Part shown: positions 26,481 through 45,035 of the stretch, one piece after another
Position numbering within the stretch: the stretch's first letter is position 1
Layout: every line of letters begins with the position of its first letter
Source: Escherichia phage MLP1
Strand: one strand, 5' to 3'
Length of the DNA stretch: 51,940 nucleotides
Sequence record: NC_079176
Position numbers and translations under genes: made by a program
The notes under the pieces: generated by a model
The model's input: the letters and a program-made list of their open reading frames with translations, nothing else
Database searches by the model: none
Told to the model about the DNA's origin: nothing

Positions 26481-26531
26481 TTCCCAATATTCGAGCAATA
26501 TTACTGCATGTAGTATTGCTCCGATATTCGA

Positions 26532-26548
26532 CATTAGTTGGATGTGAA
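26532..26548 (+). promoter_or_regulatory. 17-bp motif copy CATTAGTTGGATGTGAA (consensus)
   Basis: Exact consensus. Confidence 0.4.
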
Positions 26549-30107: not shown

Positions 30108-30158
30108 GGCGCGTTAAATTAACAAGGAGCATTCATTGAGTGTTCCTGATTAATTCAA

Positions 30159-30175
30159 CATTAGTTGGATGTGAG
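30159..30175 (+). promoter_or_regulatory. 17-bp motif copy CATTAGTTGGATGTGAg
   Basis: 75 bp upstream of the SSB-tail gene. Confidence 0.4.
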
Positions 30176-30249
30176 AGAGACAAAGCTATTCCGTGGTTAG
30201 CAATGTCGCTGAAACTTAAACCGTAAATTAACTTAAGAGAATCTTAATC

Positions 30250-30627
30250 ATGGCACAATATTCAGACGTAAACACTGGCATCATCGGTTCCAATGGCTTC
30301 AAGAAAGACCCAAAACATCCTGACGTTCGTGGACGTATTAACGTTGACGGAATCTGGTATTGGGTGTCTGGTTGGAACAAGCAAGCCAATGGTAATGAAT
30401 TTACCTCGCTGGCACTCACCATCATGACTCAAGAACAGGTCGATGAAATGTTGCGTAAGCGTGAAGAGAAAGCTAAAGCCAAAGCTCAACCTCAAGCCGC
30501 AGCTCAACAGCACCAGCAAACTCAGCAACCTACTGCACAACAGCAAGCACCTGCCCAGCAACAGCCTCAGAGCAGTAACTATAATCCGAACGAGCCGAAA
30601 GACTTCGACGACGATATTCCATTCTAA
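30250..30627 (+). CDS. small protein with the host SSB C-terminal tail (ends DFDDDIPF)
   Basis: Last 8 residues match the E. coli SSB C-terminal tip; preceded by a Gln/Ala/Pro-rich low-complexity linker and a 70-aa Trp/Gly-rich N-terminal domain. Confidence 0.6.
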   Translation: MAQYSDVNTGIIGSNGFKKDPKHPDVRGRINVDGIWYWVSGWNKQANGNEFTSLALTIMTQEQVDEMLRKREEKAKAKAQPQAAAQQHQQTQQPTAQQQAPAQQQPQSSNYNPNEPKDFDDDIPF

Positions 30628-30640
30628 TTGGAGATGCCCT

Positions 30641-30760
30641 ATGAAAATTTTATGTTTTATAGGGCTACATAATTGGGAGATTTCTCATACAAACGATTAT
30701 GTAACCTTTTGGGTGTGTAAGCACTGTTCAGTAATGCGTGAGGAATATCATGGCAATTAG
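30641..30760 (+). CDS. small Cys/His-containing protein (39 aa)
   Basis: LCF..H..H....CKHC; below ORF-track cutoff. Confidence 0.25.
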   Translation: MKILCFIGLHNWEISHTNDYVTFWVCKHCSVMREEYHGN

Positions 30761-31655
30761 TGTTATCGAAATACCTGCAAATTTGGTCAAAACTGGCGAT
30801 GTTGTATTTCATGATGGCAGAGGGTATCCGATTGTCCACATCAACAGACTTAGTGATGTAGTTCAGCTACAACACTCTGGCGGATTCTTTAATTTTGAGT
30901 TGGGCCGTATAGTCAGAATATTAGACAAACGTCCCACTACAGAATCTTTTACAAAGCCTACCACAACCCGTGCAGTATTGGCGCATGAAGTACGACCTGG
31001 GAACATCTTATCTTACGGAATCAGATTCTTTGAGATAAAGGAAGTTAAAGACCTTGGGGAAATACCTGAAAATGTGGTTCGATTAACCCATGTAACAGGA
31101 TACTTTGACTTTTCACCCAACCGCATAGTCCACATTGTTAATACGCCACCAGCACAGGAAACTCCTACGGTGAAGTTCGATACTCAGATAAAGCCAGTAT
31201 TCCTTCCATATGAGGAAGCAGTGAAACCATTCTCAGATGAAGAGGATGTTAAAGGTGCTGATGTGGAAGTTGGTGATGTTATCTGGTTTAAGGGTAATTG
31301 GGCAACTGTTACAAATGTGTACAAGCACCCAAACTCACCATACAATAAAGTCAATATCGAACACGGCGACGTAAAAGGTTTGCAAGTACGTCTGGTATTA
31401 ACTGGAACTTATTCAAGAAAGGTAAGAGCAGTAATGGAAACTTTAAATATCCAAAATGCAATCGAAGCACAACGTATTCTTCTGCAAAAGCTAGAGCAAA
31501 TGCTTGACTTACAGCAACTTGCACCAACAGCAGATGGCAAGATTGCAATCGGCAACTGTAACATTCGCGTGGACAAGGCATCAATCGTTAAAGCCGCACG
31601 GGATGAAATGAAAGTTGCCGCAAGCAAATCCGCAGAGCTTATTAAGAAGCTGTAA
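30750..31655 (+). CDS. hypothetical protein (about 301 aa)
   Basis: ATG 30750 with GAGGAA ribosome-binding site; track start is GTG 30738. Confidence 0.45.
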   Translation: MAISVIEIPANLVKTGDVVFHDGRGYPIVHINRLSDVVQLQHSGGFFNFELGRIVRILDKRPTTESFTKPTTTRAVLAHEVRPGNILSYGIRFFEIKEVKDLGEIPENVVRLTHVTGYFDFSPNRIVHIVNTPPAQETPTVKFDTQIKPVFLPYEEAVKPFSDEEDVKGADVEVGDVIWFKGNWATVTNVYKHPNSPYNKVNIEHGDVKGLQVRLVLTGTYSRKVRAVMETLNIQNAIEAQRILLQKLEQMLDLQQLAPTADGKIAIGNCNIRVDKASIVKAARDEMKVAASKSAELIKKL

Positions 31656-40150: not shown

Positions 40151-41914
40151 ATGAACGTCAAGCAATGTGTTGCCAAGATTAAGCACGATGTACCAGACTG
40201 TAAATCCACATCTGGCAAGTCTTTACAGGTTTGGTTGAATGTCGATGAAGCTGGTAATAAGAACTTCTCTGGTTACTGCTTTGCCTGTGGCGTTCTCGTT
40301 CCGAATCCGTATGGCAATAATCCGGAGAATATTCCGGAAATCAAAGTCAAGACTCCAGAAGAAATTCAGGAAGAAATTGACGAAGTAACCTCATGCCCTC
40401 CATTTGATTTAGACCATCGCAGTATTGAACCAGAATTCTGGAAAGCTGCTGGTGTTCGTCTACTCTATTCAGAGTTTGATGGTAAGACTCCAAATGCTTT
40501 GGCACATGGATATACCAAGAATGGCAAACTTGTTCGCTGGAAGATTAAACTTCTGAACAAGAAAGTTATGTGGTCTGTTGGCGATACTCAAGGCAACGAC
40601 CCATACAACTGGATGGCTGCAAAAGCTATTGGCGGTAAGACACTGTTCATCACAGAAGGTGAAGAAGACTGTATCGCATTGCGTCAAATCCTCAAAACTA
40701 TGAACCGTGGTGGTGCATATGAAGATTTGGATTTTGCTGTAATTAGTTTGAGTGATGGGAGCGATTCCGTACACAAATGTTTGTCACCAGTTGCAGAAGA
40801 AATCAAGCAACGTTGGGAACAGGTTGTTATCGTATTTGATGATGATGAGCCTGGTCGTAAAGCTGCAAAGGAAGCATGTCGTTTGCTGCCTGGTGCAATG
40901 ATTGCCACACTCCCTGCCAATGATGCCAACGACTGTTTGAAACGTGGCTTGCTGAAAGCTACTCAGTCTGCTGTTGTGTTCCGTGCTGCTCGTCCTCTGC
41001 CCACAGCTCTTGTAGATAAAGAACTCCTTCTGGAGGAACTTGATGACGAAGTTGAACAGGGTGTAGATTATCCTTGGACTAAGTTAACCGATTTAATGTT
41101 TGGTCAGCGTCGTGCCGAAGTTATCTCAATCGGTGGTGCAGAAGGCGGGGGTAAGACTACACTATCTCGACAGATTGTGCATCACAATATCATTCAGCAT
41201 GATTGGGGAGTGTTTACTGCATACATGGAGGAAACTCCTGCGGAAACATTACGCCGTATGGCTGGCCTCAATGACAACTTGCCGTATTGGGAACCTGCGT
41301 TTACTCGTGAAGACCCTCGATACGATGAAGCGAAGTTCCGTCAAACTGCTGCGAAGATGCTTCATAACATGGAGATTTGGGACCGCAAGCAAGCCGGAGA
41401 AGACCCATATGAAACTTGGGATGGGTTAAAGACGATTCTTCGTCAGATTGGTCCAGACATTGATATGTTTGTTCTTGATAACTTAACCTACTTATCAGAA
41501 GGGATTTCTGCCTCAGAGAAGAACGACTTCTTAGGCAAGCTGTATGCAGACATTACTAAGCTGGCAGACCAATACCAGTTCCATGTCAATATCTTGTCGC
41601 ACCTTAACCCTGTGGCAAAAGGCCAGCGACCTCATGAAGATGGTGGACGAATCAAGAAGTCAGACTTTACTGGCTCTCGTGCTGCTGCTAAATATTCTCA
41701 TGGTATGTTTGGCTTTGAGCGTAATAGTCAGGCAGTAGACCCAAACTGCTCAATCATTCGTTCCATCAAAGCTCGTAAGAGCGGTAAGACAGAAGGCTTC
41801 AAGACGTACTATGACTCAGACTCCGGTCGAATCATTCAACGTTCTTGGGACGACTCCCTGTTCGAAACCAAAGAGATTGTTCAACTTACTAAGAAGAACG
41901 GTCCACATCAATAA
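40151..41914 (+). CDS. DNA primase-helicase (T7 gp4-like)
   Basis: N-terminal zinc-ribbon cysteines (CKSTSG, YCFACG), central primase-like region, Walker A GGAEGGGKTTLS in the DnaB-like C-terminal half. Confidence 0.8.
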   Translation: MNVKQCVAKIKHDVPDCKSTSGKSLQVWLNVDEAGNKNFSGYCFACGVLVPNPYGNNPENIPEIKVKTPEEIQEEIDEVTSCPPFDLDHRSIEPEFWKAAGVRLLYSEFDGKTPNALAHGYTKNGKLVRWKIKLLNKKVMWSVGDTQGNDPYNWMAAKAIGGKTLFITEGEEDCIALRQILKTMNRGGAYEDLDFAVISLSDGSDSVHKCLSPVAEEIKQRWEQVVIVFDDDEPGRKAAKEACRLLPGAMIATLPANDANDCLKRGLLKATQSAVVFRAARPLPTALVDKELLLEELDDEVEQGVDYPWTKLTDLMFGQRRAEVISIGGAEGGGKTTLSRQIVHHNIIQHDWGVFTAYMEETPAETLRRMAGLNDNLPYWEPAFTREDPRYDEAKFRQTAAKMLHNMEIWDRKQAGEDPYETWDGLKTILRQIGPDIDMFVLDNLTYLSEGISASEKNDFLGKLYADITKLADQYQFHVNILSHLNPVAKGQRPHEDGGRIKKSDFTGSRAAAKYSHGMFGFERNSQAVDPNCSIIRSIKARKSGKTEGFKTYYDSDSGRIIQRSWDDSLFETKEIVQLTKKNGPHQ

Positions 41915-41980: not shown

Positions 41981-43915
41981 GTGTTGTATCCTTGGGAAAG
42001 AATGTATGCCAGCGACATTGAAACAACTGGTCTGTTGGAGCAAATGCGTAAGCAAGCTGCCCCACGTCTTCACAACATTGGGCACATTGATGTTCAAACT
42101 CGTGAAGAAGTCGTAACAGAATGGACTGACCGTAAATCCATTCAAGCATTCCTGGACTCAGGTCCAACATTAATTATGCACAACGGCGCAACCTTTGACT
42201 TTGAAGCATTGAAGTTCTTGGGTTACGACGTTTCAAAATGTACACTAATTGATACTTTGTTTATCAGTTGGTATCTGCAACCTCGTCGTGTTAAGCACGG
42301 CTTAGAAGGTTATGGAGAAGAGTTTGGTGTGCCGAAACCAGTCATTGATGATTGGGAAAATCAAACTCAGGAAGAATATAACCATCGTGTGATGGAAGAC
42401 TGTAAGATTCAGTTGAAGCTGTGGGAACAGCAATATATTCAACTCCTTAAGATTTATAAAACTCCTGGCGAAGTTAGACGTTTTATTGAATACCTTATGA
42501 CCAAAGCTCGTCAACAAGTTATTCAACAACGTACTCGCTGGAAGCTGAACATTGAGAAAGCATTGGCATTTAAGGCCAAACTTGAACCAATGATTAAAGA
42601 GAAGACGGATGCGTTGGAAGCATCAATGCCCCGTGTTCCCGAATATGTCATCAAGTCGCGCCCTGCCAAATGCCACAAGTTAAATGGACAGTTGTCCTCA
42701 ACTGGTATGAAGTGGAAAGCTGTCTGTGATGCAAACGGTTTGGACTGGAAAGACCCAGACTTGCACATTAAGGTGCTCAAGGGTTACAAAGAACCTAACG
42801 CTGGTTCACACGTACAAATCAAAGACTGGTTATTTGGCCTTGGTTGGGTTCCAGAAACCTTTAAGTTTGACCGTAACAAAGAGACGGGCGAGACTCGCCA
42901 GATTCCTCAAATCACGGTTAAGGATGAAGATGGCAATCCTGAAATCTGTCCGAGCTTGCATAAGCTGGCAGAAAGAAACCCCGAATCTGGTATTCAACAT
43001 CTTATTGGGTTGGGCGTGTATAAACACCGTCTGTCTGTTGTTAACGGTTTCCTTCGCGACGTCGATGAAGATGGATTCCTTACTGCGCGATGCGGTGGCC
43101 TTACCAATACTCTACGTCTTAAACACCGCGAACTTGTTAACCTCCCTTCTATTCGTGTATTTGGCGGTGAAGAACTCCGTTCATTGCTGGAAGCGTTTCG
43201 TGAAGACTACGAACAGCTAGGCTCTGACTTGTGTTCACTGGAAGACCGTTGTAAACACCACTTCCAATGGATGTATGACCCTGAATATGTTAAGAAGCAG
43301 TTGGCACCAGACTATGATGCCCACCTTGCAATCGGCGTAATCGGTGGATTCATCACTGAGAAAGAATCTCAGGACCATAAGGATGGAATACAGAAATGTA
43401 AGCAACGTCCAATGTTTAAGACCACTAACTATGCTTGCCAGTATGGTGCTGGTATTCCAACTGTTGCTCGTTCTGCTGACTGTGACCAATCAACGGCTGC
43501 ACGTCTGCATAAAGCATATTGGGACCTGAACTGGTCAATCAAAGAGATTGCTGCTAACACTAAAGTCATCACAGTTGATGGCCAGATGTGGCAACAGAAT
43601 CCAGTAAACAAATTCTGGTATTCTCTGCGTACAGAGAAAGACCGCTTCTCAACATTGTGTCAGGGTACTGGTGCATATGTGTTTGATATCTGGTGTAACA
43701 ACATCATTGCAATTTGTAACGAACGTTGGGGTTGCGACCCTCTGTTGTCCGGACAATTCCATGATGAATTGATTCTGCAAGTTAAGAAAGGTTTCCGTGA
43801 TTTGTGGACGGACTTGCTTAATGAGGCAATGGAACGTACCAACAAAGAACTTAAACTTAACCGTGATTGTGCATGTGATGTGCAGTTCGGTGATAACTAC
43901 GCGGAGATTCACTAA
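41981..43915 (+). CDS. DNA polymerase, family A, with 3'-5' exonuclease domain
   Basis: Exo I DIETTGL; motif B FKTTNYACQYGAG; motif C QFHDELIL; start may be ATG 42002. Confidence 0.85.
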   Translation: MLYPWERMYASDIETTGLLEQMRKQAAPRLHNIGHIDVQTREEVVTEWTDRKSIQAFLDSGPTLIMHNGATFDFEALKFLGYDVSKCTLIDTLFISWYLQPRRVKHGLEGYGEEFGVPKPVIDDWENQTQEEYNHRVMEDCKIQLKLWEQQYIQLLKIYKTPGEVRRFIEYLMTKARQQVIQQRTRWKLNIEKALAFKAKLEPMIKEKTDALEASMPRVPEYVIKSRPAKCHKLNGQLSSTGMKWKAVCDANGLDWKDPDLHIKVLKGYKEPNAGSHVQIKDWLFGLGWVPETFKFDRNKETGETRQIPQITVKDEDGNPEICPSLHKLAERNPESGIQHLIGLGVYKHRLSVVNGFLRDVDEDGFLTARCGGLTNTLRLKHRELVNLPSIRVFGGEELRSLLEAFREDYEQLGSDLCSLEDRCKHHFQWMYDPEYVKKQLAPDYDAHLAIGVIGGFITEKESQDHKDGIQKCKQRPMFKTTNYACQYGAGIPTVARSADCDQSTAARLHKAYWDLNWSIKEIAANTKVITVDGQMWQQNPVNKFWYSLRTEKDRFSTLCQGTGAYVFDIWCNNIIAICNERWGCDPLLSGQFHDELILQVKKGFRDLWTDLLNEAMERTNKELKLNRDCACDVQFGDNYAEIH

Positions 43916-44171: not shown

Positions 44172-45035
44172 ATGGCATTTGCTGCTCCTACTCTGGCCTC
44201 GAACAAGACTCCTTCTGCTGCACCATTACTGGAAGCGGGTGGTTATCCTGCTCGTGTCTGCCGTATTATCGACCTGGGCTTACAGCCAGGCTCTGCTAAA
44301 TATCCAAACCCATCTCTGAAACTTCTGGTCACTTTCGAGCTGCTCGACGAGTACATGAAAGAAGTTGATGGCAATGGTGCTATGGTCATGGTCCAAGACC
44401 CGGACGAAGATGACGGCGTAATGATGGCGAAGAATCTTGAAGACAAGCCGCGTTGGTTTGACTTTGAGTTTACCTACAACGCTGACGGCTTCATGGGTGA
44501 CAACTCTCACATCTACAAATTCGCTAAAGCGATTGATGCGCTGGAAGTTAAACAGAATCTGGAACAAGGTATTCAGGGCCACCCTGCTAAGAACCTGCCA
44601 GATTGGTTGACCGAGCCTCTGGTTGTTGGCATTGTTCAGTATACCAAGCAGTCTGGCAAGAATGCTGGTCAGGTTGCAAACAAGGTTGCTACCTTCTCCC
44701 CAATGAAGTCTAAAGAGAAGAAAGAGGCCAAAGCTCTGGTTAACCCGACTGTGTTCTTCGACATGTCTGAGCCAGACCTAGAAGTGTTCAACAAGCTGCC
44801 TGGTGGCGATTCTCCTTACGCAATCAAGAACCGCATTACTGGCGGTGTTGACTTCTACAAAACCAAACTGTCTGTCCTGTTGGGCGGCAAACCTGCTGAT
44901 GATTCTGTTCCGAATCAGGCTTCTGATGAAGAGGTTGATGCAGCAATGAAGGCTGAACTGGAAGCTCAGGCTGCTGCAAAAGCACAGCGTGAAGCGGAAG
45001 GTGGTGCTGCTGGCGGCACTGGAATGCCGTTCTGA
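44172..45035 (+). CDS. abundant-looking replication-module protein, possibly ssDNA-binding
   Basis: Host-like optimal codons; Ala/Glu-rich C-terminal region ending GTGMPF; sits between polymerase and exonuclease; no diagnostic motif. Confidence 0.3.
   Translation: MAFAAPTLASNKTPSAAPLLEAGGYPARVCRIIDLGLQPGSAKYPNPSLKLLVTFELLDEYMKEVDGNGAMVMVQDPDEDDGVMMAKNLEDKPRWFDFEFTYNADGFMGDNSHIYKFAKAIDALEVKQNLEQGIQGHPAKNLPDWLTEPLVVGIVQYTKQSGKNAGQVANKVATFSPMKSKEKKEAKALVNPTVFFDMSEPDLEVFNKLPGGDSPYAIKNRITGGVDFYKTKLSVLLGGKPADDSVPNQASDEEVDAAMKAELEAQAAAKAQREAEGGAAGGTGMPF

Follow-up and report, generated by a model that had tools for sequence, protein, structure and literature searches.

The 125-residue protein encoded at positions 30250-30627 (+) of Escherichia phage MLP1 (NC_079176) is probably a genuine minimal phage SSB (a protein that binds single-stranded DNA), with a predicted core that is not an OB fold and a tail that docks host partners, phage partners or both. 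The basis for this reading is how the sequence is built and conserved, together with its predicted fold and its gene neighbourhood. The features are listed in Table 1; the window denotes the whole stretch of 51,940 nucleotides that was analysed.

Table 1. Features in and upstream of the SSB-like gene (positions in the window)
Feature	Position	Strand	Basis
Phage-RNA-polymerase-type promoter motif TTCAACATTAGTTGGATGTGAG	30154..30175	+	Corresponds to 'putative phage promoter 3' of phiEcoM-GJ1; promoter annotated before the SA91KD SSB gene
5´ leader with AAGAG (30235-30239)	30176..30249	+	Nearly invariant in the window, GJ1 and SA91KD
SSB-like protein CDS, 125 aa, stop codon included	30250..30627	+	ATG start; translated ORF
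N-terminal β domain, residues 1-60	30250..30429	+	Alignments; residues 1-80 modelled with AlphaFold
C-terminal helix of the domain, residues 61-79	30430..30486	+	AlphaFold secondary structure; composition
Q/A/P-rich disordered linker, residues 80-113	30487..30588	+	pLDDT below 50; composition; varies among homologues
Acidic tip NEPKDFDDDIPF, residues 114-125 (octapeptide DFDDDIPF, 30601-30624)	30589..30624	+	

In the proposed mechanism, a β-β-β-β-α domain of about 60-80 residues, probably dimeric, would bind ssDNA with conserved aromatic residues (W36, Y37, W38, W42 and F51) and basic residues (K18, R27, R29 and K44). The disordered Q/A/P linker would hold the DFDDDIPF tip out as a docking peptide. 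In E. coli SSB, DFDDDIPF is the docking peptide for Exo I, RecQ, PriA, chi, DnaG, RecO and others. Placed on phage ssDNA, the tip would recruit these host partners, the phage T7-like primase-helicase and polymerase, or both, in a manner modelled on the T7 gp2.5 tail. The tip of temperate relatives probably serves to load the neighbouring annealase (Erf or Rad52), comparable to the HK620 SSB tail and Sak4.

Sequence architecture and the protein family

The full product is MAQYSDVNTGIIGSNGFKKDPKHPDVRGRINVDGIWYWVSGWNKQANGNEFTSLALTIMTQEQVDEMLRKREEKAKAKAQPQAAAQQHQQTQQPTAQQQAPAQQQPQSSNYNPNEPKDFDDDIPF, and its C-terminus (...NYNPNEPKDFDDDIPF*) closes with the residues KDFDDDIPF. The last eight residues are identical to those that close the E. 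coli SSB chain 1eqq (...NEPPMDFDDDIPF), which confirms the exact host octapeptide that an earlier note had described at the end of this 125-residue ORF. The same note had described a Q/A/P-rich linker and an N-terminal domain of about 70 residues, and both descriptions hold. The linker contains 15 Gln, 6 Ala and 5 Pro in its 34 residues, carries no charged residue and is predicted to be disordered in the full-length AlphaFold model, with pLDDT below 50. The structured part comprises approximately 60 residues of sheet and a helix reaching residue 79; by composition, this helix is strongly charged beyond its first two turns, and the β domain has almost no net charge (about +0.6). When PDB sequences were searched with the protein and two profiles, the matches to solved SSBs were confined to the tail. 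The protein is matched by phrog_7364, 'single strand DNA binding protein' (E = 2.7e-42), and by phrog_18154 (E = 2.2e-17), where the SSB name is an annotation and not an assayed function.

The window represents a coliphage of the phiEcoM-GJ1/ST32 type (Carltongylesvirus, Chaseviridae). DNA identity of the region to Escherichia and Yersinia phages of this group is 86-92%, and the phiEcoM-GJ1 orthologue of the protein is gp15. The SSB annotation on the orthologue dates from 2008; similarity notes lead from GJ1 gp15 to YP_024430 (VP2p29 of Vibrio phage VP2) and from there to the V. cholerae SSB. The 125-residue protein reaches 24-28 bits with the SSB models of NCBIfam, whose cut-offs are 54-260, and similarity to bacterial SSBs beyond the tail was not found in Pfam, NCBIfam and PDB sequence searches. 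Because the tail is the only similarity found to bacterial SSB, the database label of the family appears, judging from these searches, to derive from the tail alone. No experimental work on any family member was found in the searchable literature. SSB identity is already known at the annotation level and the tail is ordinary; since host-like tips are well known on phage SSBs and the relatives are already labelled SSB, the protein is less surprising than the earlier note held. One record, PP952070.1, is named Staphylococcus phage Pel53 and gives Staphylococcus hyicus as the host; it shares 88-99% identity with the coliphage group, and its host assignment looks doubtful.

The family is large. 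The first search returned 56 homologues, the profile search with the N-terminal domain 471 family proteins, and a profile built from the most distant members at least 1014 proteins at E up to 0.1. A Pfam match to the domain was missing: none of the 120 proteins listed of the 1014 carries a precomputed Pfam domain, and a Pfam scan of the 125-residue protein and 73 members (E up to 10) matched only the low-complexity linker. In PHROGs, the family is represented by phrog_7364 and phrog_18154, both labelled SSB. The alignments place the conserved part in the first 60 residues, followed by a linker that is free in length and sequence and a tip that is kept. G10, N15, P24, G28, G34, W38 and W42 are invariant across the 73-sequence alignment, and D6, I11, K18, D25, W36, F51, S53, L54, T57, M59 and T60 are additionally invariant in the closer 26 sequences.

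The tip is preserved with some freedom. I-P-F does not change in any of the 26 aligned homologues, and their linkers differ in both sequence and length. The C-terminal end is PF in 189 of the 221 fetched members (86%) and [ILVMT]PF in 184. The typical tip in this set is acidic-x-[ILVM]-P-F behind a variable linker; the commonest forms are DDDIPF (82), DSDIPF (17), DDSIPF (17) and DDDLPF (9), and a few members end in DDxLI-like peptides. The codons of the tip vary synonymously between the window, phiEcoM-GJ1, SA91KD and Vibrio phage VP2, which indicates selection on the peptide. The invariant IPF, the PF ends and the synonymous tip codons together argue that the tail is not a chance occurrence. 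A recent capture of the tail from host ssb was rejected: at the DNA level, 5426 E. coli genomes yielded only a 62-nt match to plasmid ssb ends at 76% identity (E = 8). The tips of close relatives depart from the exact host peptide, as in DFDSDIPF (GJ1), DFDSEIPF and GFDEDIPF.

The N-terminal domain, with its invariant tryptophans, is conserved more than the tail. Eight of the 221 members have no C-terminal tail and carry an N-terminal extension instead; they retain the domain. Acidic-hydrophobic motifs (EELDFLE, EMDFLD, NEELLG and DGMDLGE) were observed in the N-terminal extensions of tail-less and of some tailed members, and such an extension may be a relocated partner-binding peptide. VP2p29 (158 aa) comprises two tandem β modules followed by a linker and a DFDDDIPF tip, and its second copy aligns to the window domain with a score of 69, which was reached by 0/2000 shuffles. 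The domain has its own role, because tail-less members keep it and VP2 has two tandem copies. The duplication in VP2p29 hints at a pair of modules as the working unit. PC4-like domains have been described in single-chain and dimeric versions (PMC7549692), which the tandem copies of VP2p29 parallel.

In some close Carltongylesvirus orthologues, the tip is replaced by ...FDESIPFAPIGLQEGRRYLHCI, which places a 15-residue extension after IPF. Host partners recognise the free carboxylate of the terminal Phe of SSB; judging from the orthologue sequences, the Phe carboxylate would not be free in these proteins. The composite ending, DFDDDIPF with APIGLQ(E/Y)GR.FLH.(I/F), is also present on the Sak4-linked SSB of Pseudomonas phage Torfinnsbu and on phi92 gp156. 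A tblastn search with the C-terminal 40 residues of one extended orthologue matched 116 phage records; two of these, Torfinnsbu and phi92, were checked, and both carry the composite tail. The shared ending on different cores implies that tails move between unrelated cores, and the composite tail looks like a portable two-part docking module.

Predicted fold of the N-terminal domain

Residues 1-80 were modelled by AlphaFold with the 73-sequence alignment (pLDDT 91, pTM 0.73). The model has four β-strands (residues 10-14, 26-32, 35-46 and 49-58) and the helix at residues 61-79, with two-residue turns between the last three strands. The β-β-β-β-α order with an antiparallel meander is that of PC4-like proteins. 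In this model, the core is not an OB fold: it is a four-stranded sheet with a helix and not a five-stranded OB barrel, which bears out the earlier suggestion that the N-terminal domain does not resemble a canonical SSB OB fold. An OB-fold domain recognisable by a PF00436 or TIGR00621-type profile was not detected in the protein. An OB core of the T7 gp2.5 type was not detected either; gp2.5 has no tblastn match on the ORF, and the predicted fold differs.

The nearest solved folds are the ssDNA binders of the PC4/Sub1/Pur-alpha/Whirly group, with every score below significance. By two methods, PC4-like ssDNA binders head the structural matches among small proteins. The best four Foldseek matches are MoSub1 (E 0.24-0.68, TM 0.34); no SSB was found among the Foldseek matches, with PriB alone at rank 31. 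Pfam PC4 (PF02229) matched none of the 73 members at E up to 10. Comparison by hhalign with a five-sequence PC4 alignment gave P = 0.11 over a segment whose register does not fit the predicted strands; against an SSB alignment, nothing was obtained. The negative PC4 profile result is weak, because true PC4-like proteins barely detect one another; the T5 PC4-like protein reaches human PC4 by sequence at only E = 1.4. By eye, RGRINVDGIWYW resembles KGKVLIDIREYW, the DNA-binding hairpin of PC4, which corresponds to the same hhalign alignment (P = 0.11). This match to the β2-β3 hairpin of PC4 was set aside since it is out of register and the DG turn falls in the middle of strand β3 of PC4. Membership of the domain in the PC4-like class is a tentative assignment from the model, with the chances slightly below even. 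A putative resemblance to DUF736 was not supported by Pfam scans at E up to 10.

Genomic setting of the gene

Gene context is the strongest functional evidence for the protein family. Four short members (83-91 aa) on metagenomic phage contigs are each located directly downstream of an annealing protein gene (4/4), which is Rad52_Rad22 in one case and ERF in three; YqaJ exonuclease is present in two of the ERF cases, and no PF00436 SSB was found near the four. The slot after the gene of a single-strand annealing protein is the usual place of phage SSB genes. The family member is located beside DNA polymerase I, within helicase/primase modules, in three further phages: VP2 of Vibrio, SH-Ab 15497 of Acinetobacter and Bm1 of Burkholderia. 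In SH-Ab 15497 and Bm1, it was observed between DNA polymerase I and a gene annotated as adenylosuccinate synthetase (PurZ-like). We take SH-Ab 15497, Bm1 and the VP2/phiVC8 group to be phages with 2-aminoadenine (Z-base) genomes. The SSB of Salmonella phage PMBT28, which may belong to the family, enhances Z-base incorporation jointly with the helicase of that phage.

The genome of the MLP1 group encodes a T7-like replication set (RNAP, primase-helicase, DNAP, 5´-3´ exonuclease, endonuclease VII and ligase), and the 125-residue protein is the sole annotated SSB in the phage genome. In the window, the primase-helicase is encoded at 40151-41914 and the DNA polymerase at 41981-43915. Only the DFDDDIPF-type tail was found in tblastn searches of the window with the E. 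coli and B. subtilis SSBs, T7 gp2.5, T5 D11, a Sak4-linked phage SSB and phi92 gp156.

The gene is located in the early/middle region and is preceded by a phage-type promoter of its own. The promoter motif recurs with two mismatches at 26527-26548, against 0 matches expected by chance. The AAGAG element of the leader is a Shine-Dalgarno-like site, with the ATG of the ORF ten bases further on. The 134 bases at 30116-30249 are almost invariant in the window, GJ1 and SA91KD, and divergence begins upstream of 30116. A regulatory RNA structure in this conserved leader was considered and rejected: the predicted structure is no more stable than that of shuffled sequences (z = 0.18), and Rfam gave no match. 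Autoregulation of the SSB gene in the manner of T4 gene 32 is only a thought, by analogy. Directly after the SSB gene, a 39-codon ORF (30642-30761, +; MKILCFIGLHNWEISHTNDYVTFWVCKHCSVMREEYHGN) was observed at the position of the annotated GJ1 gp16, and the Cys/His pattern in its sequence could bind zinc.

A second tail-bearing protein, of 287 residues, is encoded at 44172-45035 (+) between the DNA polymerase and the 5´-3´ exonuclease. It has a flexible A/E/G-rich tail with the end GTGMPF; among its homologues in Chaseviridae and Zobellviridae, the gene position is conserved and the C-termini are IPF, DPFA, DDDIPW or DDNPW. In PHROGs, its function is listed as unknown, and no Pfam match was obtained. 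Its identity as a gp2.5-like or T5 D11-like SSB was tried and rejected, with hhalign and Pfam giving nothing. The only match is to the NCBIfam 'replication initiation protein, NGO0469 family', below the cut-off for this protein and above it for the Pseudomonas phage K4 homologue. The 287-residue protein may use the same docking sites as a second client, sharing partners with the 125-residue protein, and could take part of the SSB role.

Alternative readings and comparison with known systems

The earlier note left a choice between a minimal SSB that recruits partners, which is the favoured prediction here, and a decoy, which is unlikely. A pure decoy or titrator would not need to coat ssDNA. 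Abundant copies of the host tip would soak up Exo I, RecQ, PriA, chi and others, and host replication restart would be crippled or the phage 3´ ssDNA ends would be shielded from host nucleases. The octapeptide is exactly that of the host, and the early/middle region that contains the gene also carries host-takeover genes, for example that of an anti-restriction protein, which is consistent with this reading. The post-erf slot of temperate relatives can also hold anti-nuclease genes (P22 abc1/abc2, PMC5928155), and another phage SSB-like protein with an FDDDIPF tip has been tied to Exo I (SbcB) in DRT10 activation (bioRxiv 10.64898/2026.04.29.721553). However, the N-terminal domain is conserved above the tail with invariant tryptophans, tail-less members exist, and the exact host sequence drifts even among close relatives. 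The position beside DNA polymerase in several phages suits a replication protein, and a second SSB was not detectable in the phage by tblastn and annotation. A reading of the protein as a hijacker and not a passive SSB is also rather unlikely: as an abundant minimal non-OB (PC4-like) ssDNA binder with the exact host tip, the protein would compete with host SSB for the whole SSB interactome. In this doubtful reading, Exo I, RecQ, PriA, chi and DnaG would be drawn onto phage DNA and off the host chromosome, and the tail would be a portable module exchanged among unrelated phage ssDNA-binding cores.

Two further readings concern the domain. The core may be a degenerate OB fold that arose from a bacterial-type SSB by internal deletion, with the function still that of an SSB; we consider this origin quite improbable. 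The NCBIfam SSB models align to residues 42-125 and thus extend slightly into the structured domain, and VNTGIIGSNG and INVDGIWYWVSGWNKQANGNEFTSLALT recall by eye the β1 and the β4-L45-β5 region of E. coli SSB. The family profile also matches a 17-residue hairpin (TVKVDGKEYWTSRWNLQ) of the OB-fold Shiga toxin 2 B subunit (E = 0.011), which is probably a chance resemblance of two β hairpins. Very improbable is a role as a transcription cofactor, in which a PC4-like ssDNA binder would aid the phage single-subunit RNAP at melted promoters in the manner of N4 gp2 and LUZ7 Drc. The fold class that comes closest belongs to a transcription coactivator, the gene is in the early/middle region, one tail-less member is encoded downstream of a T7-like RNAP gene at a distance of about 1 kb, and small non-OB ssDNA-binding RNAP cofactors are known in phages (PMC7145618). 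In contrast, most members are located by DNA polymerase or in recombination modules without a phage RNAP among the neighbours read, and the conserved SSB-type tail indicates partners in DNA replication and repair. Among the points against the preferred reading as a minimal non-OB SSB are the apparently tail-derived database label, the near-neutral β domain, the 287-residue protein and the 15-residue extension in some orthologues.

Should the model hold, a second, unrelated DNA-binding scaffold carries the SSB design (core, flexible linker and docking tip), in a large family (at least 1000 sequences) that is without a Pfam entry and is named from tail similarity only. Neither the combination of an SSB linker and tip with a small, PC4-like-looking core nor the extent of the family outside Pfam appears to have been described so far. 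If true, the family would be a natural experiment on the action of the SSB tail separate from the OB core, would offer a 60-residue ssDNA-binding module of possible value as a tool, and would put the annotation of a frequent slot in the recombination and replication modules of phages on firmer ground. The protein is also relevant to recent work on phage SSBs and SSB-like tips that trigger or evade defence systems (Retron-Eco8, DRT10, Hna and AbpAB).

Similar to bacterial SSB (E. coli Ssb; PF00436, TIGR00621), the protein comprises a core, a disordered low-complexity linker and an acidic tip with the last eight residues identical; the disordered linker with an acidic [IL]PF tip is a membership feature of bacterial-type SSB. 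Unlike E. coli Ssb, it has a predicted core that is not an OB fold and no significant sequence similarity, and it is shorter (125 aa versus 178 aa). The closest known systems include the phage T5 PC4-like protein (T5.115, PDB 4bg7), PC4/Sub1, YdbC, SP_0782 and BPSL1147; the T5 protein has reportedly been proposed as the replicative SSB of T5. T7 gp2.5 is the SSB of the T7 replisome, and its acidic, Phe-ending C-terminal tail contacts the phage polymerase and helicase. The 125-residue protein shares the T7-like replisome setting and the acidic tail with a final Phe; gp2.5, in contrast, is an OB-fold protein of 232 aa with no tblastn similarity within the window.

Other phage proteins resemble it in part. 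The last six residues (NDYPPF) of HK620 SSB are required to load the Sak4 annealase (PMC5928155). As with HK620 SSB (DUF669 type) and Sak4, short family members occupy the annealase-adjacent slot, after Erf or Rad52; the core belongs to a different fold family, and the tip of the 125-residue protein is the exact host sequence. LUZ7 Drc, from an N4-like phage, is a small dimeric non-OB ssDNA-binding RNAP cofactor whose sheet overlays part of the PC4 sheet, and the consulted part of its description mentions no SSB-type tail (PMC7145618). Both proteins have small non-OB phage cores, here by prediction, and the role of Drc is in transcription; Drc was absent from the structural matches of the N-terminal domain. 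Bas52_0087, the DRT10 trigger, is likewise a phage protein with an FDDDIPF C-terminal tip and is discussed as interfacing with Exo I (SbcB), but it is predicted to contain two OB folds in more than 350 residues, and its core is unrelated to that of the 125-residue protein.
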